A program made the translations under genes and the position numbers. The notes under the pieces were generated by a model. That model was not told the origin of the DNA. It was given only the letters and a program-made list of their open reading frames with translations, and did no database searches. Below, in pieces: positions 7,930-62,117 of a DNA stretch of 64,000 nucleotides (positions within the stretch are counted from its first letter, which is position 1; each line of letters begins with the position of its first letter). The DNA comes from Planctomycetota bacterium (GTDB taxonomy: Bacteria > Planctomycetota > MHYJ01 > JACQXL01), in the NCBI GenBank assembly GCA_038059695.1, contig JBBTIZ010000069.1, positions 2,969 to 66,968 of the forward strand, given 5' to 3'.

Positions 7930-8649
7930 TTATTTCTTCTGTAACGTATCGCTGAGTATCTTGGCGCTCACTATGTTACCCAGTACCGGCGAGACATAAT
8001 CCCTTAAATACCGCGCCACATCGGCAATCGGCTTGGTGGAGACATAGATAATGTCGCGCGGATAAATCACTATATTATTGCGCATATTGCCATTGATGAT
8101 TTCATTGATATCTATCAAAATAGTCTCTGATTTCTCAACATCCTTCTTTAATTCGCCCCGGATAACCAGGGCATTGCCCCACTGGGCATCCCTGGTCAGG
8201 CCGCCGGCCTCGGCGATTATATCCATAAACGAAGTTCGGCCGAAGATTTTATAGACGCCCTGCTTGCCGACCTCGCCCAGGACAATCACCTTTTCACCGG
8301 CAAAGTTCTTGACCGTCACCGAGACCTGGGGCGAAACCACGTATTCGGCCAGTTTTTTGCTCACCTCGTCGTCTATCTCGGTCAAGGTCCGGCCCTGGGC
8401 CTCAATATCGCCGATAAGAGGAAACGAAAGTTTACCGTCCGGCCTGACAATGATATCACGGGTTAAGTCAGTATGCTGCCAGACGAATATTTCAATGGTA
8501 TCACCGGAAATGACCTGATAATCCAAGGGTTTGAGTTGTTCCGGGTCATACGCCGAAGGCCGGATGGTCGGCGGATAGACGTTAGTCACGCCGCCGCAAC
8601 CCAGAGGAAGCAGCCCGGCTAATAATAGTAGGATTATTATAGACCTCAT
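7930..8649 (-). CDS. Polysaccharide export protein (Wza/SLBB type), lipoprotein signal
   Basis: Lipobox LPLGC. ISGDTIEIFVW...VRPDGKLSFPLIGDIEAQGRTLTEI is typical of Poly_export plus SLBB. Confidence 0.75.
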   Translation of the reverse strand: MRSIIILLLLAGLLPLGCGGVTNVYPPTIRPSAYDPEQLKPLDYQVISGDTIEIFVWQHTDLTRDIIVRPDGKLSFPLIGDIEAQGRTLTEIDDEVSKKLAEYVVSPQVSVTVKNFAGEKVIVLGEVGKQGVYKIFGRTSFMDIIAEAGGLTRDAQWGNALVIRGELKKDVEKSETILIDINEIINGNMRNNIVIYPRDIIYVSTKPIADVARYLRDYVSPVLGNIVSAKILSDTLQKK

Positions 8650-8824
8650 AAGATATATTTATTATATCGTCATTTCAGGATAATTAATCCAGCCCTTTTC
8701 TGCGGAGTATTAGACCAACGTAGAATGTATGTTTATATTTCTGAAACTACCCCGTAAGCGGATGGATATTAAAAAGGGGCTGGATAAATCTATTGAAATC
8801 TTACTTGCGTCGCCACCCTCTTTT

Positions 8825-8927
8825 GTCATTCCCGCGTAAGCGGGAATCCAGATAAAAAGGACTGGATACCTGCTCCCCGCTTTCGCGGGGACAAGTTTAC
8901 CCCTGCGTAGGCAGGGGCAGGTATGAC
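8825..8927. repeat. GTCATTCC...GGTATGAC palindromic element, copy 3
   Basis: GTCATTCCCGCGTAAGCGGGAATCC...CCCTGCGTAGGCAGGGGCAGGTATGAC. This explains the spurious 77-aa track ORF 8710-8943. Confidence 0.8.
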
Positions 8928-8957
8928 GGGTTGGGGTATACAAGTTTATAGTAAACT

Positions 8958-10010
8958 ATGGAACTGACCAATCAGATATGGAGTATCATCAGGGAAAATA
9001 ACCTCTTTCAGAGAAAACAGACGATAATTATCGGCCTGTCCGGCGGGCCTGATTCAATGGCCCTGACCAATCTACTCTGCCAGATAAACAGCCGGTTCAA
9101 GATGGACTGGCGCCTAATTATCGCCCATCTCAATCACCAAATGCGGGGCCGGAAATCAGACCGGGACGAAAGATTCGCCCGAAATATGGCAGCCAGTTTA
9201 GGCCTACCCATCTATGTCAGCCGCAGGAATATCATCCAACTGAGTCGGAAATACAAGCAATCACCGGAAGAAACCGCTCGTTATGAACGCTACCGCTTCT
9301 TTGCGGACATCGCCAGGCAGACAGCCAAAAGTCACCGCAAGCAAATAATCTCTGTGGCGGTCGGCCATAATCTTGATGACAACGCCGAAACCGTCCTTTT
9401 CCGGATTATCCGGGGCACCGGCTTAAAAGGCCTGCGCAGCATCAGGCCAAAACGGGAACTGTTTACCGGCTCCAAATTCCATCTGGTCCGGCCATTGGCC
9501 TTCACATCCAAGAAGGAAATCATCTCGTATCTCAAAGCCCAGAAACTGCCCTATTGCATTGACCATACCAATAAAGACCGAAAGATGCTCCGCAACCGCA
9601 TCAGGCATGAGTTATTGCCGCTCTTAAAGAAGTACAATCCGGCCATCTGCCAGCATCTGGTACAGTTGTCCGAAACCGCCTCCGCTCACTATGACTACCT
9701 GGACAAAACCACCCGGGCCAAGATGCTTGCCTGCGCCGTGCGAAGCGCGGCAGGCAGGCCCCGTAAACAGAATTCGCTTCCTATCAATATGCTGAAAAAG
9801 GAGCACCCTATAATCCAGACAGAAATGCTGACCAAGGCGCTGGAGAATATCGCCGGCACAAAGGCAGTGGCATATAATCATTATCAGGCACTGTTAAAAC
9901 TGATTAATTCACCCAAGCCCAAAGGCGAAGTCCACCTGCCGGACAATATTATCGCCCGGGTCAAGGCCGGTAAACTCATGATTAAACGTTCTAATAATAG
10001 ACAAAATTGA
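8958..10010 (+). CDS. tilS: tRNA(Ile)-lysidine synthase
   Basis: PP-loop GLSGGPDSMAL and HLNHQMRG. Confidence 0.85.
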   Translation: MELTNQIWSIIRENNLFQRKQTIIIGLSGGPDSMALTNLLCQINSRFKMDWRLIIAHLNHQMRGRKSDRDERFARNMAASLGLPIYVSRRNIIQLSRKYKQSPEETARYERYRFFADIARQTAKSHRKQIISVAVGHNLDDNAETVLFRIIRGTGLKGLRSIRPKRELFTGSKFHLVRPLAFTSKKEIISYLKAQKLPYCIDHTNKDRKMLRNRIRHELLPLLKKYNPAICQHLVQLSETASAHYDYLDKTTRAKMLACAVRSAAGRPRKQNSLPINMLKKEHPIIQTEMLTKALENIAGTKAVAYNHYQALLKLINSPKPKGEVHLPDNIIARVKAGKLMIKRSNNRQN

Positions 10011-10048
10011 TTTGTTACTTATAATAACTGCGTGGCTGAGATAAATTA

Positions 10049-10120
10049 GATTGCTTCGTCGCTCCGCTCCTCGCAATGACAGTACGAACGATTGTCATTG
10101 CGAGCGTCAGCGAAGCAATC
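10049..10120. repeat. Long palindrome GATTGCTTCG..CTCGCAATGAC / GTCATTGCGAG..CGAAGCAATC
   Basis: Self-complementary arms seen directly. A second copy is embedded inside carB at about 52208-52275. Confidence 0.8.
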
Positions 10121-10180
10121 TCTCTCTTATCTTTGAAATTCCATACGATAGGTTAGTGGCACATAGAAAGGAAAAGACCT

Positions 10181-11638
10181 ATGGCAAAGGCAGCAGCCGA
10201 ATCCCGTGAGGGAAAGTCATCATCCCCGTCCAAACGCACCGCGGCCCGCCCGAACGACCGAAAGGTCGGGCAGGCAAAATCAAAACAGGCCAACGCCCCG
10301 ACTCCGGAGGCCATCCAGAAAATGCTTAATAAGGCCAAGCAGCCATCCGCAGACGCAATGTCCATGCACCCCTTCTACAGAGGCAAAATAGAGATAGTCC
10401 CGAAGAGCTGCATCCGCGACTACAATGATTTTGCCATCTGGTACACGCCCGGCGTGGCCGCGCCTTGCAAGGACATCCAGGCCAATCCTGAAAAGGTCTT
10501 TGAGCACACCAATAAATGGAATACCGTAGCCGTTATTACGGACGGTACCCGCGTCTTGGGATTAGGCGATATCGGGCCGCACGCGGCTATCCCGGTCATG
10601 GAAGGCAAAGGCATGCTCTTCAAATACCTGGGCGGCGTTGACGCCTTCCCCATCTGCCTGGACACCAAAGACCCGGATGAATTTATCAAGACCGTCAAAT
10701 ATCTGGAACCCTGTTTTGGCGGCATCAATCTGGAAGACATCGCCCAGCCAAAATGTTTCAGGATTCTTGATACCCTGCGCAAAGAAATGCCTATCCCGGT
10801 CTGGCACGATGACCAGCAAGGCACCGCGGCCGTCACTCTGGCCGGACTAATTAACGCGGTGAAAATCCAGGGCAAGAAACTGTCCGAAGTAAAGATAGCC
10901 ATGGTCGGCGCCGGCGCGGCTAATATCTGCATCGCCCGGATGATTATCAAGGCCGGTGTTAATCCCAAAAACATCATTATGGTCGATACCAAGGGCACCC
11001 TGCACCGGGACCGCCAGGACCTGGCCACCGGCCATCCGGAAAAATGGGAGATGTGCCTCAAGAGCAATACCAATAACGTCAAAGGCAATATTCCCGAAGC
11101 CATGAAAGGCGCCGAGGTATTACTGGCCCTTTCCCAACCCGGCCCTGGTGTCATAAAGAAAGAATGGGTTCGCATGATGGCGCCCAAGCCCATCGTCTTT
11201 GTCTGCGCCAATCCGGTGCCGGAAATCTGGCCCTGGGAGGCCAAGGAAGCCGGGGCTGATATCGTGGCTACCGGACGCTCTGATTTCCCGAATCAGGTCA
11301 ACAACTCGCTCGGTTTCCCGGCTATCTTCCGCGGCGCGCTGGATGTCCGGGCCAAAACCATCACGGACGAGATGTGCATCGCCTCAGCCGAGGCGCTGGC
11401 TAAATATGCCGAGAAAAAAGGATTATCCAAGGAACACCTGATTCCGACCATGAGCGATTGGCGGGTCTATCCGGAAGAAGCCGTGGCTGTCGGCATGAAA
11501 GCCATTGAACAGGGTGTGGCTAAATTGATTCTGACCACAGACCAACTGCGCGATAATGCCACTAAAATGATTCAACGGTCCATCAAGATAACCAAGATGA
11601 TGATGAAGGAAAAGATTATTCAGCTGCCGAAAAAGTAG
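10181..11638 (+). CDS. NAD(P)-dependent malic enzyme (short MaeB-type, no PTA domain)
   Basis: FYRGKIEI, YTPGVA, GTAAVTLAGLINA and MVGAGAANI. Carries a ~55-aa K/A/P-rich N-terminal extension. Confidence 0.85.
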   Translation: MAKAAAESREGKSSSPSKRTAARPNDRKVGQAKSKQANAPTPEAIQKMLNKAKQPSADAMSMHPFYRGKIEIVPKSCIRDYNDFAIWYTPGVAAPCKDIQANPEKVFEHTNKWNTVAVITDGTRVLGLGDIGPHAAIPVMEGKGMLFKYLGGVDAFPICLDTKDPDEFIKTVKYLEPCFGGINLEDIAQPKCFRILDTLRKEMPIPVWHDDQQGTAAVTLAGLINAVKIQGKKLSEVKIAMVGAGAANICIARMIIKAGVNPKNIIMVDTKGTLHRDRQDLATGHPEKWEMCLKSNTNNVKGNIPEAMKGAEVLLALSQPGPGVIKKEWVRMMAPKPIVFVCANPVPEIWPWEAKEAGADIVATGRSDFPNQVNNSLGFPAIFRGALDVRAKTITDEMCIASAEALAKYAEKKGLSKEHLIPTMSDWRVYPEEAVAVGMKAIEQGVAKLILTTDQLRDNATKMIQRSIKITKMMMKEKIIQLPKK

Positions 11639-11641
11639 AAA

Positions 11642-11716
11642 TGGCTCCCCGCGTAGGACTCGAACCTACAACCAACCGGTTAACAGCCGGCTACTCTACC
11701 ATTGAGCTAGCGGGGA
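11642..11716 (-). tRNA. tRNA-Asn (GTT)
   Basis: Hand-folded cloverleaf with acceptor TCCCCGC/GCGGGGA, anticodon loop CTGTTAA, T arm GTAGG-TTCGAGT-CCTAC and an encoded CCA. Confidence 0.85.
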
Positions 11717-11787
11717 TTATCGAAACGTCAATTTATCAACTTTAATCCAGCTAACCGCTGGATACAACCAATCCCGCTAAAGCGGGA

Positions 11788-11820
11788 CTACCCCGCCATT
11801 GAAATAGCGGGGATTATCGT
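11788..11820. repeat. Degenerate duplicate of the tRNA-Asn 5' part plus flank
   Basis: 27 of 33 positions identical to 11691-11723 (hand alignment). Confidence 0.55.
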
Positions 11821-11924
11821 ATTGCTATAACCGAGGTTTTTCTTATATCAGAATGCTAGTTATTGTCAATAAATTTATATCGGTTTTTAATCCCAATTAA
11901 TAATAAACTATGAGGGAGCACGCA

Positions 11925-12503
11925 ATGACTAAATCACTTAAAGGCACCAAGACCGAGAAGAACCTCCTGGCTTCGTTTGCCGGAGAATCCCAGGCCCGCA
12001 ATCGCTACACCTATTTTGCCAGCGCGGCCAAGAAAGAGGGATACGAGCAGATTTCGGCCATATTCCTGGAGACGGCTGATAACGAAAAGGAACACGCCAA
12101 GATGTTCTTCAAGCAACTGGAAGGCGGGGATGTGGAAATAACCGCATCATATCCGGCCGGCCAGATAAAAGACACCGTGTCTAATCTCGAAGCCGCGGCA
12201 GACGGCGAGAATATGGAATGGACCCGCATCTATTCTGACTTTGCCCAGACCGCCCAGGCCGAGGGATTCCCGGAAATCAGCCGGATATTCGAGCAGATTG
12301 GCAAGGTGGAAAAGTTCCACGAGGCCCGCTACCGCAGCTTGGTCAATATCCTCCGCAATAAAGAGACATTTAAGAGAAGCGCGCCGGTCAAATGGCACTG
12401 CCGCAACTGCGGATATGTCAGTGAAGGCAAGGAAGCTCCCAGGGAATGCCCGGCCTGCAAGCATCCTCAGGCGTATTTTGAGGTCCTGGGTGAGAATTAT
12501 TAG
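11925..12503 (+). CDS. rbr: Rubrerythrin
   Basis: LKGTKTEKNLLASFAGESQARNRY and a C-terminal CRNCGY...CPACKHP rubredoxin-like site. The ATG at 11925 has a GAGGGAG SD 7 nt upstream. Confidence 0.9.
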   Translation: MTKSLKGTKTEKNLLASFAGESQARNRYTYFASAAKKEGYEQISAIFLETADNEKEHAKMFFKQLEGGDVEITASYPAGQIKDTVSNLEAAADGENMEWTRIYSDFAQTAQAEGFPEISRIFEQIGKVEKFHEARYRSLVNILRNKETFKRSAPVKWHCRNCGYVSEGKEAPRECPACKHPQAYFEVLGENY

Positions 12504-13700: not shown

Positions 13701-13807
13701 TTTCTCTCCGTGCACTCTGTGTCTCTGTGGCTAATTATCTATCCTGCCAAGCAAATTATATCTCGAGATAATTGACTTCTGCCACGCCAAATTATACGAT
13801 ACCCCCT

Positions 13808-14761
13808 ATGTTTAAACCAGACAAGTTCATCACCGAAAAGATAGCCGAACTGAAGGATAAAATCAAGGGTACAGCCATTATCGGTATCTCCGGCGGTGTG
13901 GATTCCACCACAGCAGCCATCATCGTCCATAAGGCCATCGGCAAACAACTCCTGTGCGTGCTGGTGGATACCGGCTATATGCGCAAGAACGAGGTAAAGT
14001 TTAACGAGCAGATGCTCAAGGACCTGGGCCTGAATGTCATGGTGGCTGACGCCTCGGACCGCTTCTACGCCGGCTTAAAGGACGTGGCTGACCCGGAAAA
14101 GAAACGCAAGGTCATCGGCGAACTGTTTATCCGGGTATTCGAGGAAATCGCCCTGAAGCAAGGCGCCAAATACTTTATCCAGGGCACGATTGCCCCGGAC
14201 TGGATAGAATCCGGCGGCGGATTGAGGGACAACATCAAGTCACACCACAATGTCGGCGGACTGCCGGCCAAGATTGCATTTGAGATAGTCGAGCCCCTGC
14301 GCGATTTATACAAGGACGAGGTGCGCTTAGTCGGACAGGCATTGGGACTGCCTACTGCGGTCTATGAACGCCAGCCCTTCCCGGGCCCGGGACTGGCTGT
14401 CCGGATTATCGGGCCGACCGATGCGGCCAAGGCCGCGATTGTCCGCGAGGCCTGCGCCATTGTCGAAGAGGAACTGGAGATGGCGTCCAAGGCCAAACTC
14501 ATGGTCATACCCTGGCAGTATTTTGCGGTGCTGTTGCCGGTCAAGGCGGTCGGGGTGCACGGCGATGTCCGGGCTTATGGCTATGTCGTGGTGGTCCGGG
14601 CCGTAGAAAGCATGGACGGCATGAGCGCCACATACTCCAAGATACCGCATCAGGTCCTGGAGAAAATATCGGTGCGCATCACCAATACCCTGAAGGACGA
14701 CGTCAGCCGGGTGGTCTTTGATATCACCCATAAACCGCCCGGGACGATTGAATACGAGTAA
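13808..14761 (+). CDS. guaA: GMP synthase, ATP-pyrophosphatase subunit (split form)
   Basis: PP-loop GISGGVDSTT and C-terminal HKPPGTIEYE. ATG at 13808 is preferred over the TTG at 13772. Confidence 0.85.
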   Translation: MFKPDKFITEKIAELKDKIKGTAIIGISGGVDSTTAAIIVHKAIGKQLLCVLVDTGYMRKNEVKFNEQMLKDLGLNVMVADASDRFYAGLKDVADPEKKRKVIGELFIRVFEEIALKQGAKYFIQGTIAPDWIESGGGLRDNIKSHHNVGGLPAKIAFEIVEPLRDLYKDEVRLVGQALGLPTAVYERQPFPGPGLAVRIIGPTDAAKAAIVREACAIVEEELEMASKAKLMVIPWQYFAVLLPVKAVGVHGDVRAYGYVVVVRAVESMDGMSATYSKIPHQVLEKISVRITNTLKDDVSRVVFDITHKPPGTIEYE

Positions 14762-14768
14762 AGAAGAG

Positions 14769-14894
14769 GTTACAACCGGTTACAAGACGTTACAAAACGT
14801 TACAAGAGGTTGCTTAAGGCTACGGTTTACACTGAGCGCAGCGAATGTGCAACTTCCTGTAACATCATGTAACCCTACTGTAACTTCATGTAAC
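14769..14894. repeat. 10-bp-phased GTTACA array arranged as a large palindrome
   Basis: GTTACA at 14769, 14779, 14789 and 14799, plus GTTGCT at 14809. The inverted arm has TGCAAC at 14848 and TGTAAC at 14858, 14868, 14879 and 14889. Confidence 0.85.
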
Positions 14895-14904
14895 ATTATA
14901 TATC

Positions 14905-15474
14905 ATGCCAAAGATTTATGTGGTTGACAACGGCGGGCAATGGACCCATCGCATCTGGCGGGTCCTGCGCGAACTGGATTGCGACACCAAGATCATCCTC
15001 AATACCACCCTGCTTAAAGATATAGACGCGGATGGACTGGTGTTAAGCGGCGGCGCGGCCCGGATTGCCTGGGAATCGCTCAAGTTAGGCGAATGCACCA
15101 CCTACTTTAAGGAATTCAAAGGCCCTATCTTAGGCGTCTGCGTCGGACATCAGTTAATGGCTTCATATTATGGGGGTAAGGCCGGCGCCTCTGAGATGCC
15201 GGAATTCGGGCTATCCAAGATACGTATCTTAGAACCGAACGACCTGTTCAAGGGGTTACCTAATGAATTCAATGTCTGGCAGTCGCACAACGACGAGGTC
15301 AAAGCCGCGCCCGGATTCACGGTCCTGGCCGAGTCGGATAACTGCAAAATCCAGGCCATCAAACATAACTCCAAACCGCACTACGGCGTCCAATTCCATC
15401 CCGAGGTTAACAATACAGAGCATGGCGAAGCCATATACCAAAACTTCGTTAATATCGTGGCCGGGAAAAAATAG
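14905..15474 (+). CDS. guaA: GMP synthase, glutamine amidotransferase subunit (split form)
   Basis: Class I GATase motifs GVCVGHQL and VQFHPE. Confidence 0.85.
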   Translation: MPKIYVVDNGGQWTHRIWRVLRELDCDTKIILNTTLLKDIDADGLVLSGGAARIAWESLKLGECTTYFKEFKGPILGVCVGHQLMASYYGGKAGASEMPEFGLSKIRILEPNDLFKGLPNEFNVWQSHNDEVKAAPGFTVLAESDNCKIQAIKHNSKPHYGVQFHPEVNNTEHGEAIYQNFVNIVAGKK

Positions 15475-17150: not shown

Positions 17151-17735
17151 ATGGCAAAGATACCAGCAATTTGTGATTCCTGTGGCACGTTTTTCGTACT
17201 TAATAACATAATTGGCGGTAACGCTGGTAGTGTTACGTTTACTAATTGCAGAAGTACATGTCCTAAGTGCGGGGAGAGCGCTCACATACTTGATGGCACA
17301 TATCAATTTATTGATGATACTATCAAATTTCTTAAAGCTCCAGAACATACTATTTTAGAACTTCAGCGTTTATCTCAAATCTTACAGGGTGCTATGAAGA
17401 AGGGCGCTACGACAGAAGAAATTAATAATCAAGTCCGAAATGAGTTGCCTAAATTATCAGCGGTTTCTAAATTTCTACCTAATAATAAGTCCGAACTATG
17501 TGCTTATATCATGATTTTAATAGCTGTAATTAATTTACTAATTCAGATATTACCTAAAGGAGAAAAACTAAATATAACGCATACCCAAGTTATTAACAAT
17601 ATACAGGTAATTCAAAAATCCCAGAAATATAATAACGCTACAGATAAACAATCTGTTGAACCTAAAAAAAGGGGACGTAATAGTCCATGTCCATGTAAAA
17701 GTGGCAAAAAATATAAATATTGTTGCGGAAAATAA
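17151..17735 (+). CDS. Zn-ribbon / single-TM / SEC-C-motif protein
   Basis: CDSC...CPKC pairs, hydrophobic helix LCAYIMILIAVINLLIQIL and C-terminal CPCKSGKKYKYCCGK. Confidence 0.6.
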   Translation: MAKIPAICDSCGTFFVLNNIIGGNAGSVTFTNCRSTCPKCGESAHILDGTYQFIDDTIKFLKAPEHTILELQRLSQILQGAMKKGATTEEINNQVRNELPKLSAVSKFLPNNKSELCAYIMILIAVINLLIQILPKGEKLNITHTQVINNIQVIQKSQKYNNATDKQSVEPKKRGRNSPCPCKSGKKYKYCCGK

Positions 17736-17797: not shown

Positions 17798-17841
17798 CCC
17801 CCCTATACCCTATAGGTATATACCCTACACCCTATAGGGGG
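17798..17841. repeat. CCCCCCTATA...TATAGGGGG hairpin with CCCTATA submotifs
   Basis: Self-complementary ends seen directly. Lies just upstream of array 1. Confidence 0.65.
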
Positions 17842-17913
17842 CATAGAGTTATTTGCCCCAAACATCCGTATTTTTCTTAAAGACCCCCTTCATATCTTAC
17901 AAGACACGGGAGA

Positions 17914-18274
17914 TTATCGTAAATCCGCACGGAGATTATGGCAATTCTGGCCGGGAGTTATCGTAAATCCGGCCGGGCATTATGGCAAATCCAGCCGGTC
18001 ATTATGGCAATTCTGGCCGGTCGTTATGGCGAATCCGCCGGGAGATTATCGTAAATCCAGCCGGAGGTTATGGCAAATCCAGCCGGAGGTTATGGCGCAT
18101 CTGCACGGAGGTTATGGCAAATCCAGCCGGAGATTATGGCGCATTCGGCCGGAGGTTATGGCAAATCCGGCGGGGAGTTATGGCGAATCCGGCCGGAGGT
18201 TATGGCGCATTGTATGGGTGGTTATGGCGAACCGGGTGGGGGGTTATGGTGAGGGGGGTGGGGTATCTCCCCCC
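17914..18274. repeat. Tandem array 1: 16 units of 22 bp (consensus TTATGGCRAATCCRGCCGGAGG)
   Basis: TTATGG/TTATCG anchors fall every 22 bp from 17914 to 18244 without an indel. The array ends in GGGGTATCTCCCCCC. Confidence 0.9.
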
Positions 18275-18386
18275 TTTCTAATGTCATATCCTGCACTCCT
18301 TTCAACATTTTGCAACAATTTGCCACTCCTAATGGGCATTTTGGGTCTAAAAATGGGGGTATTTGAGGGCTAAAAAGTGCAGTAAA

Positions 18387-18497
18387 AATCCCCCTCACTC
18401 CCCCTTTTTCAAAGGGGGATGTGGAAATTTATTCGTGGGATTCGTATAATTCGTGCTATTCGTGTTCTCTTCTTTGTGGCCTTTGTGTTCTTTGTGG
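18387..18497. repeat. Composite: CCCCC..TTT/AAA..GGGGG palindrome plus 9-bp runs ATTCGTG x4 and TTTGTGG x3
   Basis: ATTCGTG-type anchors at 18431, 18440, 18449 and 18458. TTTGTG anchors at 18473, 18482 and 18491. Confidence 0.85.
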
Positions 18498-18504
18498 TTA
18501 ATTC

Positions 18505-19605
18505 TTACCAATTCCTTAAAGCCGCGGAAATGTTCTTCAGGCCCTGTTTGAGGAGATGGGGTTTGGTGCCTGAGGCAATCCGGATATAGCCCGGTGTGCC
18601 GAAGTATTCGCCGGGCACGACCGCGGTCTGGTAGCGCTTGAACAAATGTTGCTGGAATCTGAATGAATCCTTAAACGGTAATTTGATAAAGCAGACGATA
18701 CCGCCGGCCGGTTCGCGCCATTGCAGGCGCGGCTCTTGGGCTATCCAGTCCTTGATTATCTGCCTTTTATTGCCGACTATGGCCTTGGTGCGCTTTATCA
18801 GGGCTGAGATATGGCGCATGCAGAACAGCGAAATCATCTGGGCCGGATAAGCATCGCTGGCTGACATATAGTCATAGGTCCGGGAGAACAAGTAGGTGAG
18901 TTTGGGCGATGCCATAATCCAGCCGGTGCGCATCAGGCCCAGGCCATAGACCTTGGTCAGACTGGACAGCGTAATGGCCATCGGGCTGGACTTGCAGAAC
19001 GGCTGGCGAGGCCGGTCGAACAGGAAATCCTTATAGACCTCGTCAAAGGCGATATAGACCTGGTGCTTCTCGGCCACCTTGACCAGCCCGCGGATGACGG
19101 CTTCATCCATCTTGACGCCGGAAGGGTTATGCAAATCAGTCAGCAGGATAAGTTTGGTCTTGCGGGTAATCAGGCGGTCCAGTTCATCCGGGTCAGGTTG
19201 CCAGTTGTTGGCTATCCGTCTGGGCAGAGGAACTATCTTGGCGCCCAGTGATTGGGCTGAGCGCATCATCGGCCCGTAGCAGGGCGATTCCAGGATAATC
19301 TCATCGCCGGACTTGAGCAACCCGGCGCAGAGGAGATAGATGGCCATATTGGCCCCGGCGCACATGGCGATATTATCAACCTTGACATTGTAATACTTGG
19401 CCAATTCCTGTTTCAGGGCCAGCGGGCCGTAACTATCTTTATTAGTATGGCTGCATAGTTTAAGGTAATCCATCTTGAAACCCATCCGGAGCAGTTCCTT
19501 GAGTTCCAGGGACGGCACCCCGCTTATCATCAAGGGATATTTGATGGATTTCATGTCCAGGAGTTTGACCCATTCAATGTGTTCGACTTTAAGAATATCT
19601 TTCAT
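18505..19605 (-). CDS. PLP-dependent aminotransferase, class I/II fold
   Basis: SSLTKVYGLGLMRTGW (PLP-lysine context) and overall fold-type I pattern. Confidence 0.8.
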   Translation of the reverse strand: MKDILKVEHIEWVKLLDMKSIKYPLMISGVPSLELKELLRMGFKMDYLKLCSHTNKDSYGPLALKQELAKYYNVKVDNIAMCAGANMAIYLLCAGLLKSGDEIILESPCYGPMMRSAQSLGAKIVPLPRRIANNWQPDPDELDRLITRKTKLILLTDLHNPSGVKMDEAVIRGLVKVAEKHQVYIAFDEVYKDFLFDRPRQPFCKSSPMAITLSSLTKVYGLGLMRTGWIMASPKLTYLFSRTYDYMSASDAYPAQMISLFCMRHISALIKRTKAIVGNKRQIIKDWIAQEPRLQWREPAGGIVCFIKLPFKDSFRFQQHLFKRYQTAVVPGEYFGTPGYIRIASGTKPHLLKQGLKNISAALRNW

Positions 19606-19660: not shown

Positions 19661-19736
19661 AACCACAAAGAGCACAAAGGTCACAAAGGGACAACCCCCT
19701 TTTAGTCCCCCTTTGTTAAGGGGGATTAAGGGGGGT
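19661..19736. repeat. Composite: CACAAAG x3 (9-bp run) plus CCCCC..GGGGG palindrome
   Basis: Approximate mirror image of 18387-18497 on the other side of the aminotransferase gene. Confidence 0.8.
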
Positions 19737-24115: not shown

Positions 24116-24162
24116 AATCCCCCTTAATCCCCCTTTTGCAAAGGGGGAAATAGGGGGATTAG
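24116..24162. repeat. AATCCCCC..TTT/AAA..GGGGGATT palindromic element
   Basis: AATCCCCCTTAATCCCCCTTTTGCAAAGGGGGAAATAGGGGGATT. Same family as 18387, 19694, 27898 and 46842. Confidence 0.8.
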
Positions 24163-27677: not shown

Positions 27678-28233
27678 ATAAATTCTCTCTTAGTTTTATT
27701 CTGGCCCGGGCTAAATAGCCCATGACGCTGCCTATAGGCATATCCAGGATTTTACTAATCTCCTCATAGGAAAACTCGGCCATTGCACGAAGCAGGAAGA
27801 CCTGACGTTCGTTATCAGGCAGAGCCACCACTGATTCTTTTACCTTATCCTCCATTGTATCAAGTAACTCAGACAAATGAACAACTGAAGAAGTAACAAC
27901 CCCCTCCAATCCCCCTTTGTTAAGGGGGAAATCAGTGGTTGTTGGCGCTTCAGTTTCATCGTTTACCCTGGATGGATTCTTTAGTTCCTCGGTTTTCTTA
28001 TGGGCCCGATTCAGGTTACGCACCACATAATTGGCAATATGGAACATCCAGACCCGGAACCATTTCTCATCTCCGGAAAACGATGCGAACTTCTTCCAGC
28101 CCTCAAGAGCCGTATTCTGGAAGGCATCCTCAAATTGCTCCTTATTCCAGATTATATACCTGATATAATTCATCAGGGGTTTTCGGCACGACTCCAGCCA
28201 GCCGATAAACTCCTTATGCTTTTTTTTATCCAT
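27646..28233 (-). CDS. ECF-type sigma-70 family factor
   Basis: Region 2-like FEDAFQNTALEGWKKF and region 4 ERQVFLLRAMAEFSYEEISKILDMPIGSVMGYLARARIKLRE. Confidence 0.8.
   Translation of the reverse strand: MDKKKHKEFIGWLESCRKPLMNYIRYIIWNKEQFEDAFQNTALEGWKKFASFSGDEKWFRVWMFHIANYVVRNLNRAHKKTEELKNPSRVNDETEAPTTTDFPLNKGGLEGVVTSSVVHLSELLDTMEDKVKESVVALPDNERQVFLLRAMAEFSYEEISKILDMPIGSVMGYLARARIKLRENLYEYARELKYI
27898..27940. repeat. CCCCC..GGGGG palindromic element inside the sigma factor ORF
   Basis: AACCCCCTCCAATCCCCCTTTGTTAAGGGGGAAATCAGTGGTT, read through as ..TTTDFPLNKGGLEGVV.. Confidence 0.75.
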
Positions 28234-46882: not shown

Positions 46883-46941
46883 AGACACCTAAATTTACCA
46901 CAACTTATTAAATTTTATAGAGTTAGGTTATTTTACCCGTT

Positions 46942-47311
46942 CACCAATATTTCTTCCCCGGAGTCCCAGATTTCTTTCCGGGAGTCCCAGATTTCTTCCC
47001 CGTAACTACGGATTTCTTTCCGGTAACTACAGATTTCTTCCCGGTAACTACGGATTTCTTTCCGGTAACTACGGATTTCTTCCCGGTAACTACGGATTTC
47101 TTTCCGGTAACTACGGATTTCTTCCCCGTATATACGGATTTATTCCCCGTATATACGGATTTATTCCCTGTATATACAGATTTCTTTCCCAATGCACCGG
47201 GGACTTTCCGCCCTGAGACGGAATCTTTCCACCTTGAGGTGGGAACTCTCCACCTTGAGACGGGAACTTTCCGCCCTGGGGCGGAAACCTTCAGCCCCTG
47301 GACGGGACTCC
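46942..47311. repeat. Tandem array 3: about 17 units of 21 bp, each a short palindrome plus ATTTCTTYC
   Basis: ATTTCT/ATTTAT anchors every 21 bp from 46970 to 47180, and CTTTCC-type anchors every 21 bp from 47204 to 47288. Coincides with track ORF 46941-47405 (KKSVVTG repeats), whose coding status is doubtful. Confidence 0.85.
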
Positions 47312-47326
47312 TATATGCAGCGTGAG

Positions 47327-47431
47327 CCCCGTTAGAAGCAAACACCGCAGTGACCGCGATAGCGAACACAATTGAGATGGAAGAACTATAATTAAGTTTA
47401 ACCATCTGGCATTGAACGCTTCTAAACGGGG
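47327..47431. repeat. Hairpin/TIR element, CCCCGTTAGA family, copy 3
   Basis: CCCCGTTAGAAGC...GCTTCTAAACGGGG. The interior carries the GTTCGCTATCGCGGTCACTGCGG motif in reverse. Confidence 0.75.
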
Positions 47432-53800: not shown

Positions 53801-54781
53801 TTATTTCTTTTCCGCCGGATAAAATTCATATTCCCAGGCGGTACCACGTATCGGAATCTCCTCAATTTTACCGGATGCTTCCTTTATCTTATAGTTAAAA
53901 CACTCAACCCGATTACCTTTATCATCATATTTGGAAATCTCTTTCCATTTTAACTTGCCTTCAGCGGTATAGTTAGCATACTCAACCCGATTGTTCTTAT
54001 CATCATACTTAGAAAGCCACTTATGTTCTAACTTGACCTCAGCGTCATAGTAAGCCAATTCAATCTCATTACCTTTATCATCATACTTGCAAGTAGATTT
54101 CCATTCTAACTTACCATTAGCGTAATAAACATCCTGCTCAACCTCATTACCCTTATCATCATACTTATAAAAACCCTTAGAGTATAATTTACCCTTAGCG
54201 TCATAGACAGCCCACTCAATTTCATTACCCTTGTCATCATACTTGTAAAGATTCTTATTGTATAATTCGCCCTCATCACCATATGAAACCCACTCAATCC
54301 GATTGCCTTTATCATCGTACTTGTAAAGATACTTATATTTTGACTTGCCCACAGCGTTATAGAGAGCATCCTCAACCTGATTGCCCTTATCATCATATTT
54401 GGAAAAACCCTTAGAGTATACCTTACCGTCAGCGTAATAGACATTCTCCTCGACCTGATTACCATTATCATCATACTTGCAAAGACCTTTAGTGTATAAC
54501 TTACCATCAGTATTATAGTGAGCCCACTCAACCCGCTTGCCCTTATCATCATATTTGATAACTGTCTTGCCTAACGCCTCTATTTTACCAGACTTTTTAT
54601 TAAACTCATAATTAGTCTCTGTCGTTGTCTTAAGTCCTTTGGGTATCTTTTCCTTTTTATCTTTGGCAAAGGCGGGATTAAAACCAACTATGATGAGGAA
54701 TAAAAACACAAGGGTTGACCAGATTATCATCAATTTCTTATTCGTGTCATTCGTATTCATTCGTGATATTCGTGTTAGCAT
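53801..54781 (-). CDS. Exported protein with nine 26-aa YD-like repeats (KYDDKGN.VE)
   Basis: Nine KYDD(K/N)GN units and a signal-like MIIWSTLVFLFLIIVGFNPAFA. The first codons are repeat-encoded, so the start is uncertain (54781, 54760 or 54730). Confidence 0.65.
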   Translation of the reverse strand: MLTRISRMNTNDTNKKLMIIWSTLVFLFLIIVGFNPAFAKDKKEKIPKGLKTTTETNYEFNKKSGKIEALGKTVIKYDDKGKRVEWAHYNTDGKLYTKGLCKYDDNGNQVEENVYYADGKVYSKGFSKYDDKGNQVEDALYNAVGKSKYKYLYKYDDKGNRIEWVSYGDEGELYNKNLYKYDDKGNEIEWAVYDAKGKLYSKGFYKYDDKGNEVEQDVYYANGKLEWKSTCKYDDKGNEIELAYYDAEVKLEHKWLSKYDDKNNRVEYANYTAEGKLKWKEISKYDDKGNRVECFNYKIKEASGKIEEIPIRGTAWEYEFYPAEKK

Positions 54782-56010: not shown

Positions 56011-56063
56011 TTAGTGATTTTTAGAACCTTATTTACCATTAAAAAAGCCGAGGTGTCAACAAA

Positions 56064-56492
56064 TTATGGAATATTTTTAGAACACAAGCAATTTTAGATT
56101 CATAAGGTATGTCCTTAAGCGATATATGCTCTGTCCTTATGAATAAAACCATATGTCATTTTAGAATAAACCCAATGTCCCTTTGTTATAAACCCTACGT
56201 CCTTATGAAACAAAAGGTATGTCCCTTTGTTTCAAACGGTATATCCTTTTAGAATAAATCGTATGTCCCTTTATAACAAACCCTATGTCCTTTTGGAACA
56301 AATCGTATGTCCTTCTGTTCTAAAAAGTATGTCCTTTTAGAATAAACCCAATGTCCTTATATAACAAACGATATGTCTTTTTATAATAAACGGTATATCC
56401 TCTTGGGACAAACCCTATATCCTGTAGAAATAATACGAACTACCTCTTATATAACAGGGGGTATCCCCTACCAGTAGGGAGGGGGGGTATCT
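56064..56492. repeat. Tandem array 2: about 18 units of 22 bp (consensus AAACNNTATGTCCTTTTNNAAY)
   Basis: TATGTCC-type cores every 22 bp from 56108 to 56416 (15 units), with degenerate units on both sides. Ends in GGGGGTATCCCC and GGGGGGGTATC. Confidence 0.9.
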
Positions 56493-56752
56493 TGACAATG
56501 CTTTTGAGTGGTACAAGTAAGATAAGAATATAAATATCAATAAGATATAGTAAAAGCGGTTGTTTCTAAGGGGGCAAAATGGGGTGTCTGGAGCGGTTAA
56601 AAGGGGTATAAAACGGCTTATTTTTCGTGCTTGCGCCGGGCTAATTCGCTACTATAATGCACGCCCAGAGTGGCTGTGTTTTCTTTGAGCCAATCCGTGA
56701 ATCTGGTTTGCCCTGTCGGCGATGATTGCGTGCAGAGTAAATTAGCCATCAA

Positions 56753-57538
56753 TCATTTTATCTCATCCCTCGTGACAATCACATCTCCCATAATCGTGCC
56801 CATAAGCCAGCCGGCCAGATATCCAATTATCGGCGGAATGGAAATAATCGGCCTGGTCACCCCTATGGCATCCCTGATTTGCCTAACCAATTCCCGATAG
56901 GTAAATGTCTCAGGACCAATGGCATCAATGATACAATTATCGCTTCTCTGCCCTTGCTCAACAGCCAATCTGGCCAGGTCAACTGCATAGATGGGCTGGA
57001 GCCGGTAGTTACCGTCACCGAATACGCCGAATATTGGGAAGTTTCTCAGAAACCAGGCGATGTTGTTTATCAGGATATCCTCTTTACCGAATATAATCGC
57101 CGGCCTGAGAATGGCATACGACAAGCCGGATTCTATCAAGGCGCGTTCCACCTTTGCCTTGCCGCTGAAATATTCCAGAGGCGAATCCACAGCCGGGTTG
57201 GTCACGCTGATATGAACCACCCTTTTTACCCCGGCCTTCTTAGCCGCATCAAACAGTTTGGCGGAATTATCAACTGCTTGGGCAAAAGAGAAATTCTTAT
57301 GATTAAACCTGACCCAATAGGTGTTATAAAGAACCGCAGTCCCGCGCAGGGAATTAATAAGCTCCTCGGCGTTATCAAAATGAAGCGGATGGACTTTTAT
57401 TTTGTCTCCGAACGGATTATCACAAGGAGCCTTATTAGTTAATGTATGTGCCTCATAGCCGGCATCAATAAGCTGTCTGGCAATATATCGGCCGGTATAT
57501 CCGAATGCGCCGGTCACGGTCTGAATCTCGGAGGGCAT
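56753..57538 (-). CDS. NAD(P)-binding SDR/NmrA-like protein
   Basis: Rossmann TGAFGYTGRYIARQL with an epimerase/NDUFA9-like layout. Confidence 0.75.
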   Translation of the reverse strand: MPSEIQTVTGAFGYTGRYIARQLIDAGYEAHTLTNKAPCDNPFGDKIKVHPLHFDNAEELINSLRGTAVLYNTYWVRFNHKNFSFAQAVDNSAKLFDAAKKAGVKRVVHISVTNPAVDSPLEYFSGKAKVERALIESGLSYAILRPAIIFGKEDILINNIAWFLRNFPIFGVFGDGNYRLQPIYAVDLARLAVEQGQRSDNCIIDAIGPETFTYRELVRQIRDAIGVTRPIISIPPIIGYLAGWLMGTIMGDVIVTRDEIK

Positions 57539-60464: not shown

Positions 60465-60511
60465 GTTACAATAAGGTTACAATCAGTTACAAAAAGTTAC
60501 AAGAGGTTACA
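60465..60511. repeat. 10-bp-phased GTTACA array (5 units)
   Basis: GTTACA at 60465, 60476, 60486, 60496 and 60506. Shares AGTTACAAGAGGTT with the 14.8-kb array. Confidence 0.85.
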
Positions 60512-60533
60512 CTAACATGTGATAACACTATCT

Positions 60534-60575
60534 ATTCGTGTGATTCGTCCCATTCGTGTAATTCGTGTTCTCTTT
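60534..60575. repeat. ATTCGTG 9-bp run (4 units)
   Basis: ATTCGTG-type anchors at 60534, 60543, 60552 and 60561, abutting the aldolase stop. Confidence 0.8.
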
Positions 60576-61946: not shown

Positions 61947-62117
61947 TACGAATCACAAAGAGGAACACGAATCACACGAATCCGGCGAATCACACGAATA
62001 ATTCGTGCCATTCGCTATCGCGGTCTCAGTAGAGTTCGTTCCTATTCGTGACATTCGTGTTAGCATTTACTCTTTATATTCGCTTCGCGGTCTCTGCGGA
62101 GTTCGAGTTCGTGTTCG
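61947..62117. repeat. Inverted CACGAAT / ATTCGTG runs plus conserved 36-bp block
   Basis: CACGAAT units run up to about 62000, then ATTCGTG units follow. GTTCGCT.TCGCGGTCTC motifs occur at 62010-62035 and 62078-62105. Confidence 0.85.

Follow-up and report, generated by a model that had tools for sequence, protein, structure and literature searches.

A non-coding 22-bp tandem array in an uncultivated planctomycete, probably a copy of a dispersed and modular repeat element

Most of what is known of small interspersed repeats comes from cultivated Proteobacteria and Firmicutes, and the boxB arrays of one such family, the BOX elements of pneumococci, usually have fewer than ten units. Other tandem repeats relevant here are the iterons of plasmids, for which 22 bp is the classic period (seven copies in R6K gamma ori, four in pPS10 and in Acinetobacter Rep_3 plasmids), the sopC centromere of the F plasmid (12 direct repeats of 43 bp), and the ToxI antitoxins of type III toxin-antitoxin systems (two to six repeats of 34-45 nt, just ahead of a toxin gene in the same orientation). 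BOX elements consist of boxA, a variable tandem array of boxB and boxC, are enriched downstream of genes, and vary in unit number between strains, more so in longer arrays (PMC3049150). For repetitive extragenic palindromes (REP) and the mosaic elements built from them (BIMEs), the proposed roles include termination, mRNA stability, and gyrase or IHF binding (PMC2817692, PMC3733652). Here we compare with these systems a tandem array, A1, in a 64,000-nt stretch (the window) of contig JBBTIZ010000069.1 of a Planctomycetota bacterium (GCA_038059695.1). The region from 17842 to 18364 of the window is, on balance, probably one copy of a non-coding repeat element, modular in build and dispersed in a genus-level clade of uncultivated Planctomycetota.

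When its units are read in register, A1 consists of 16 units of exactly 22 bp (17910-18261) with zero indels, as a first-pass annotation made from the letters of the DNA had claimed. Tandem Repeats Finder (TRF), run on the window, gives a period of 22 bp and 0% indels over the spans 17909-18206 and 18154-18263, and the TTAT[CG]G anchors yield 15 consecutive spacings, each exactly 22 bp; the two-unit pattern TTATGGC-N15-TTATGGC occurs nine times versus 0.01 expected by chance. The array lies, as annotated, between convergent gene ends: a SEC-C-motif gene on the left (17151-17735, +), the last gene of a small island with an N6/N4 methyltransferase and an EcoO109I-type endonuclease, and a class I/II aminotransferase gene on the right (18505-19605, -). 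Other details of that annotation were also recovered: the perfect palindrome TCCGGCCGGA, which lies in the 18174 unit, the palindrome or hairpin at 17798-17841 that precedes the array, and the decay of the array end into GGGGTATCTCCCCCC, where a terminator-like hairpin is predicted at 18253-18272. As read from the sequence, the element is made up of a leader, about 13-16 canonical units, three fixed degenerate units, one or two terminator-like G/C hairpins and a short trailer, and is laid out in the window as follows:

17798-17841, no strand assigned: palindromic remnant, about two units, of a second 22-bp array, A2 (unit ACCTACTAGAGGCATACCCTAT), recognized by comparison with loci L100 and L108
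17842-17909, + strand: leader (spacer), of which the last ~45 nt (ATTTTTCTTAAAGACCCCCTTCATATC..ACGG) are common to every dispersed copy
17910-18195, + strand: 13 canonical A1 units of 22 bp each, delimited by TRF and register, with family consensus GAGGTTATGGCGAATCCGGCCG; the window array reads GAGGTTATGGCAAATCCAGCCG
18196-18261, + strand: three degenerate terminal units, ..GCGCATTGTATGG / GTGGTTATGGCGAACCGGGTGG / GGGGTTATGGTGAGGGGGGTGG, near-identical in the eight arrays that have their 3' end on the contig
18253-18279, + strand: hairpin of G-run, loop and C-run followed by TTTCT, terminator-like on the + strand only
18334-18364, + strand: trailer box GGGCATTTTGGGTCTAAAAATGGGGGTATTT, identical in L108, with diverged versions near the L125 array and near another array at 56 kb of the window

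The G/C hairpin also follows A1 in L108, L120, L125 and L127; in L108 and L127 it is succeeded by a second hairpin, CCTCT..AGRGG, to which a matching sequence is present in L120. Hairpins of similar style, with C5/G5 stems (TCCCCC...GGGGGA), recur at gene ends elsewhere in the window (18389-18420, 19706-19725, 24118-24158 and 27910-27930) and look like the usual terminators of this genome.

Copies of A1 were sought with a degenerate two-unit pattern, tried on 119 loci and then on metagenome contigs. Among the 119 loci the pattern matched only A1 arrays, and in the metagenome contigs it found eight more arrays or contigs, all from one (Hainich) groundwater site, which lack the aminotransferase, guaA and Cus neighbours and carry other genes instead:

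L120 (the same as L121 and L126): RadC, a C5-methyltransferase fragment, a NOV_C protein and a 244-aa protein of unknown function
L122: a methyltransferase-SNase, an MjaI-type endonuclease, a 294-aa unknown, DUF4325 and a 221-aa unknown
L127: an N6/N4 methyltransferase together with a MutH-like nuclease to one side, and opposite them a convergent ROK gene
L123: HlyD/AcrB efflux genes
L124: a PCC-domain gene and unknowns
L125: a convergent Hsp70 gene

In total, the A1 arrays of the Hainich groundwater assemblies occupy seven distinct gene contexts, and nine arrays were compared. Whole copies, with their fixed end units, are found in at least seven unrelated gene contexts. The copies share a leader of ~45-75 nt (..GATTTTTCTTAAAGACCCCCTYCATATCG..ACGG, immediately ahead of the first unit), the three degenerate units at the end, and a hairpin GGGGGGACTATCCCCCC followed by TCTKTGTAAGRGGTTGATTTATAA, which indicates that whole elements were copied to new places. 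Arrays with both ends visible or inferred have 16, 17, 19, 17, 18, 17 and 17 units. All nine known flanking genes point towards the element, and restriction-modification (R-M) genes lie within a few kb of A1 at four of the seven independent loci, always on the leader side; in this small sample the share would seem far above what the usual density of R-M genes leads one to expect. An all-against-all BLASTP comparison of the genes adjoining each copy gave no homology below E = 0.1, PADLOC returned weak partial matches only, and no rep or par gene or shared neighbour protein was found beside the A1 copies. A distant BLAST of the region against PLSDB gave no match, and neither did scans of IMG/VR with the array and leader patterns. 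Such arrays break short-read assemblies: of the eight new contigs, five terminate within an array or immediately beyond it.

The conservation of the unit is strongly site-specific. Over all copies there are 138 units, 88 of them distinct, without any indel, and the average unit departs from the consensus at 4.7 of its 22 positions (~21% substitution divergence). Conservation reaches at least 99% at positions 5-8 (TTAT), 10 (G) and 22 (G), 94% at position 14 and 93% at position 1; the 411 differences among the 88 distinct units would amount to ~19 per site if uniform, and the six sites 5-8, 10 and 22 have none or one. The variable positions (2-4, 12-13 and 16-21) include the palindrome, and so the emphasis that the first-pass annotation placed on the GC-rich palindrome has to be reversed: that half of the unit is the most variable, and what is conserved is G22, G1, TTAT (5-8) and G10. 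The resulting core, G22-G1..TTAT-S-G, is AT-rich and 8-9 nt long, the degenerate end units retain GGTTATGG, and GGA or GGAGG spans the unit junction in 94 of the 138 units. Several unit families (A1, A1', A2, A2', A56 and the array of L113) have a common 22-bp period without detectable similarity; cyclic ungapped comparison of the consensus units found significant similarity only between two versions of A2, and a common origin of the families was rejected on this ground. Compared by eye with known consensus sequences, neither a DnaA box, a sigma-54 promoter, nor an IHF, Fur, ARG-box or Noc/ParB site fits the unit. A CRISPR array was also rejected: the units abut, and their 10 variable nt are all versions of one theme.

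Close relatives illustrate how the element changes at one site. The aminotransferase next to A1 is identical to a protein encoded on Hainich (H41) groundwater contigs and in the metagenome-assembled genome (MAG) GCA_964356845.1, and relatives of this protein carry the annotation Planctomycetota or Brocadiia. Downstream of the orthologous gene, all close relatives have tandem arrays of 22-bp period. The full layout, in the orientation of the window, is variable genes (rightwards), A2, a spacer of ~70 bp, A1, a G6-loop-C6 hairpin and the aminotransferase gene (leftwards). A1 has 16 units in the window, 17 in a second strain with an identical aminotransferase (L100), and 19 in GCA_016235865.1 (L108, 84% aa identity); these arrays have in common one or two units at the start and three to nine at the end, and the middle is rearranged. 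The A2 arrays of L100 and L108 have ~20-22 units in exact 22-bp register, versus the two-unit remnant in the window, and end in CCCTATACCCTATAGGGGG as the remnant does. In L104 and L105 (90% aa identity) there are arrays of 17/16 and 16/4 units, again of exactly 22 bp, with consensus units that do not significantly resemble A1 or A2. In L110 (88% aa identity) there are four degenerate units only and no island, and three more distant loci (L111, L118 and L119, aminotransferase 54-67% identical) lack both synteny and arrays.

Gene content between guaA and the arrays varies from genome to genome (R-M and SEC-C genes, a beta-propeller and an AAA_14 ATPase gene, an RDD protein gene, Pnkp/Hen1, or nothing), which identifies the site as a variable-gene hotspot. 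In L108 the slot (8223-12188) holds a Pnkp/Hen1 RNA-repair pair followed by an ATPase gene of the AAA_14/DUF4143 type, a type also present in this slot in L100. In the window, GMP synthase itself is split into separate genes for the ATP-pyrophosphatase (13772-14761) and the glutaminase (14905-15474), an arrangement more typical of archaea. Between the window and L108 the leader or spacer is identical at 62 of 63 positions and the last units at ~97%, compared with 81-86% for coding genes and 81% for the aminotransferase gene. L104 is closer to the window in its aminotransferase gene (86%) than L108 is, yet its arrays are different, and therefore the array module has a history that differs from that of its flanks. 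With respect to the selection on spacing that the first-pass annotation had proposed, the exact 22-bp phase is conserved among relatives, but unit number, unit sequence and the presence of the array at 56 kb are not.

The closest described architecture is that of BOX, a relation of architecture only, for which no homology is claimed. In both cases a conserved 5' module, variable tandem units (12-19 in the A1 copies) and a conserved 3' module form an element with several dispersed intergenic copies; A1 occurs in seven gene contexts, and several copies per genome are suggested by coverage only. The unit differs, 45 bp in Streptococcus pneumoniae compared with 22 bp in A1, without sequence relation, and the 16-19 units per copy of A1 are far above the numbers in boxB arrays. 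A1 keeps a strict register and conserves a core of 8-9 nt; terminal inverted repeats that pair the ends of the A1 element were not shown, several unrelated unit families share its period, and its host is a Planctomycetota lineage. REP and BIME clusters of Enterobacteria and Pseudomonas are likewise extragenic, located at gene 3' ends and between convergent genes, and regularly spaced. However, BIMEs alternate inverted palindromes, whereas A1 units are direct, head-to-tail and without spacer, have no GTAG or CGTC tag, and were not seen with a RAYT transposase. Searches of the literature on Planctomycetes for tandem repeats of 22 bp, or for interspersed repeats, gave no description of such an element, and we regard it as a new family, an unusual variant, of interspersed modular repeats.

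Several processes may shape the element. Between copies and strains the interior of the array is reshuffled, with whole units gained, lost and exchanged and the count staying at 16-19; because change proceeds by whole units, phase is never lost. Turnover of the element between relatives is fast, and the variation in unit number is narrow. The element may spread by duplication or transposition, or by gene conversion between copies, and in-register recombination would account for the retention of phase. Each unit is probably the binding site of a putative factor, on DNA or RNA, with one factor, host-encoded or driving the element, presumably occupying each unit; the spacing of two helical turns and the period common to unrelated unit families would favour recognition of duplex DNA. 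The strand-specific terminators suggest that the element is probably transcribed as well.

Some observations weigh against this interpretation. No transposase, terminal inverted repeat or target-site duplication was identified, and mobility is therefore deduced from the distribution of copies alone; one stretch of the leader, ACCCCCTTC, does have its complement, GAGGGGGGT, within the last unit, though without covariation. The figure of at least two copies per genome comes only from similar coverage values in contig names, and the family link between A1 and the array at 56 kb only from architecture and short motifs. The tandem modules of known interspersed repeats fall far short of arrays of 16-19 units, the binding factor is hypothetical, and the narrow range of unit number together with the conserved core could equally reflect a function for the host.

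Such a function is the premise of the first alternative, a possible but unlikely one: a host array for protein binding at the DNA level (an iteron, centromere or nucleoid organiser), in which one protein per core, with its sites on one face of the helix, would form a nucleoprotein complex of ~17 units. It would explain the exact 22-bp register of the 138 units, the period common to the dissimilar families (A1, A1', A2, A2', A56 and L113), the conservation of an 8-9-bp core in a variable remainder, the narrow range of 16-19 units and the lack of RNA covariation. Like plasmid iterons, A1 consists of direct repeats, in exact register with a 22-bp period, that have a conserved core and variable flanks and place their sites on one face of the helix; matches in Acinetobacter and Legionella (L038, L043, L030 and L052) look like plasmid iterons of 4 x 22 bp. 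Like sopC, it is a long indel-free tandem array in which each unit has a short inverted repeat. However, its 16-19 units compare with three to nine in iterons, the setting is chromosomal and multi-copy, and there is no adjacent rep gene, AT-rich unwinding element or DnaA box. No Rep family protein is encoded in the window or beside any copy, the neighbours being R-M genes and genes for SEC-C, aminotransferase, Cus efflux and guaA. Core chromosomal genes are present on the contigs (carAB, pfk, fba, guaA and tRNA-Asn on that of the window), which is not the setting of an extrachromosomal replication origin. Partition genes such as sopA and sopB were absent within 10 kb at the orthologous locus and next to the dispersed copies, and the palindromic part, which recalls sopC, is the least conserved in A1. 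Unrelated unit sequences would require several different proteins, and the loss or replacement of arrays in close relatives (four units in L110, a different unit in L104 and L105, no A56 in three) argues against an essential role. Since rep and par genes are absent and the copies are several and chromosomal, membership in the classical iteron or centromere class is excluded, although A1 may still act in the manner of either; the iteron or centromere of the first-pass annotation, specific to one locus, gives way to one copy of an element dispersed over seven gene contexts.

Somewhat more doubtful is a gene, or a module of a 3' untranslated region, for a repeat RNA of ~400 nt with 16-19 copies of GG..RUUAUSG for an RNA-binding protein, which would serve either as a sponge or scaffold in the manner of CsrB/Rsm or as a ToxI-like antitoxin. 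The terminator-like hairpins with T-rich tails, on the + strand of the array in the window, L108 and L127, give the element polarity (a sense strand); they stand directly 3' of the array in independent copies, and a conserved leader precedes it. GGA or GGAGG at the junction of most units would suit a sponge, and folding was somewhat better than for shuffled sequences on the + strand (z = -2.5) and not on the - strand (z = -0.8), the whole-array folds being dominated by self-pairing of the repeat. The neighbourhood is rich in defence genes, as is that of type III toxin-antitoxin systems, and ToxI, too, is a non-coding tandem repeat followed by a terminator. Against a structured transcript, which the first-pass annotation had considered, mutual information in a 44-nt frame found no complementary column pairs, there is no covariation within or between units and no G-U strand asymmetry in the units, and pairing of neighbouring GC segments with the core as a loop was rejected (7.98 for adjacent units and 7.98 for random pairs). 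Searches of both strands against Rfam, whether at the gathering threshold or relaxed to E <= 10, returned nothing beyond a tRNA and noise.

The leader showed no sigma70-like promoter, though carA has one (TTGACA-N17-GTAAAT, 56030-56057, -) that is conserved in four genomes including L112, L113 and L117, which indicates that the lineage uses promoters of the sigma70 type. Known sponge RNAs need no exact spacing, and A56 lacks GGA on the corresponding strand. Membership among CsrB/Rsm sponges was not accepted despite the GGA in 94 of 138 units, hairpin covariation and an Rfam match at E <= 10 being absent. Nor was membership among type III antitoxin RNAs: A1 has 16-19 repeats of 22 nt, there is no co-oriented ToxN, CptN or TenpN gene downstream since the next gene is convergent (aminotransferase, ROK and Hsp70 genes, unrelated between loci), and the upstream neighbours are mutually unrelated. 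A C-rich site for Rho utilisation was considered separately; this reading fits A2, A2' and the reverse strand of A1 and was dropped because of its misfit with A56, A1' and the L113 array.

Equally doubtful is a proposal in which the arrays are binding platforms, each core a site for a recombination or DNA-binding protein, that serve as landing pads or exchange junctions for R-M and other defence cassettes, with recombination at the core enforcing the register, or encode a ~400-nt RNA that neutralises a defence or toxin activity encoded elsewhere. If true, either version would jointly explain the association with R-M genes, the core's invariance and the fixed period.

A neutral local minisatellite, or variable number tandem repeat, evolving by slippage at one site with phase as a by-product of whole-unit slippage, is very improbable. 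Some observations are of the kind it predicts: unit number differs between strains (16, 17 and 19; 17 versus 16 in L104 and L105), and arrays shrink or vanish (A2 has ~2 units in the window versus ~20 in L100 and L108, L110 retains four degenerate units, and another relative has an unrelated 22-bp unit). The absence of the 56-kb array in relatives, like these, was among the findings named beforehand as speaking against selection. Yet the array is not locus-specific, recurring at seven loci with similar flanks and end units; flanks and core are conserved, the leader more so than adjacent coding DNA, and there are zero indels in 138 units despite ~21% substitution divergence. Dispersed copies and site-specific conservation thus exclude a purely neutral local minisatellite, and the first-pass judgement that A1 is no young product of local slippage is supported by phase kept over 138 units in nine arrays and by a core conserved far beyond the rest of the unit.

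That annotation also read A1 as non-coding, and by its sequence features it is: three overlapping + strand open reading frames (ORFs) do run over it (17982-18281, 18026-18373 and 18070-18252), but they have no Pfam match, the unit counts of the strains (16, 17 and 19) shift the frame, and there is no conserved ORF. A protein-coding repeat with a super-period of 66 bp (22 aa) in three frames, for which one could cite that all three + frames are open (ORFs of 60-115 aa), that TRF scores the 66-bp period slightly above 22 bp, and that 60-aa and 38-aa genes are called inside the array in the NCBI record of this MAG (L102), can practically be dismissed, as a 22-mer free of stops in all frames is expected by chance in about one case in three (an estimate), a change of one unit shifts the frame while strains differ by one to three units, and higher-order periods differ between copies (44, 66, 88 and 110 bp). 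The calls in L102 exemplify how arrays of the A1 type attract spurious gene predictions.

Two further arrays in the window, at 47.0 and 56.1 kb, had been grouped with A1 in one class. The array at 56 kb, A56, belongs there in its period and register, and is found in the following element:

56079-56630, + strand: probable A56 element, 552 bp inserted in comparison with three relatives

Its 16 units of 22 bp (56093-56445), with the core TATGTCCYTT, stand in exact register and are followed by G/C hairpins (56447-56490), in a region resembling that of A1, and by a trailer box (56572-56610). In three relatives the interval between the epimerase gene and carA is only 87-141 bp, and alignment with this empty site reveals a clean 552-bp insertion, without clear duplication, located where the epimerase ORF ends and upstream of the promoter of carA. 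There are just two occurrences of the motif GGGCA-W4-GGG in the window, one beyond A1 and one beyond A56, each at a distance of ~60-130 nt. With moderate confidence, A56 is a probable second element family of A1-like architecture. The NAD-dependent epimerase gene (56618-57538, -) has an in-frame TGA at 56753-56755 where relatives have Gly (DEIK*LMANLL vs DEIKGLMAGLL), and its homology continues to 56630; it may be a pseudogene or contain a sequencing error. Further 22-bp arrays are located next to queC in L113 (14 units) and in L117.

The array at 47 kb is on the - strand, has a period of 21 bp, and is in frame within an ORF (46941-47405) with a signal-peptide-like N-terminus and GKKSVVT heptads; it is therefore probably coding and of a different kind from A1. 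The frame is also open in L112 (16123-16533), and there is a weak Pfam match to an ice-binding beta-roll family; the product is possibly a secreted lysine-rich repeat protein. The matching region of L113 has other 21-bp repeats without a long ORF. Another ORF of 326 aa (53801-54781, -) consists mostly of 78-bp (26-aa) repeats and has no Pfam match.

Shorter repeats are also present in the window. Four copies of ATTCGTG at 9-bp spacing form five intergenic mini-arrays (18431-18464, 54740-54775, 60534-60568, 61965-61999 on the - strand, and 62001-62060) that may be sites for a regulator or an RNA-binding protein, and a GTTACAA array of five copies (60465-60515) lies beside one of them. Three copies of CACAAAG at 9-bp spacing stand on both sides of the aminotransferase gene (18472-18497, -; 19664-19694, +), and the upstream set is conserved at orthologous loci (L108, 5790-5814; L110, 5888-5914). 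Upstream of the guaA glutaminase gene there are five copies of GTTAC at 10-bp spacing and four of the inverted GTAAC (14764-14811 and 14858-14896). Outside this clade, a genome-wide scan for three copies of TTATGGC at 22-bp spacing found 98 loci, which were rejected as relatives of A1, being unrelated 22- or 11-bp repeats that merely contain the anchor. Many Bacteroidales MAGs (L027/L058/L069; L037/L050/L054/L060; L007/L012/L049; L061/L062/L075 and others) each have several contigs with 22-bp arrays, the unit being a small hairpin around CTTATGGC, and these may represent another multi-copy family of 22-bp arrays.

The traits that set the planctomycete element apart are its long arrays with a period of two helical turns, a period common to unrelated families, a narrow range of unit number, an invariant core, and adjacency to R-M genes at a hotspot. 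If the binding factor exists, the element would offer a tractable case of selection on the spacing of a bacterial repeat, and may be an organiser of the exchange of defence islands.

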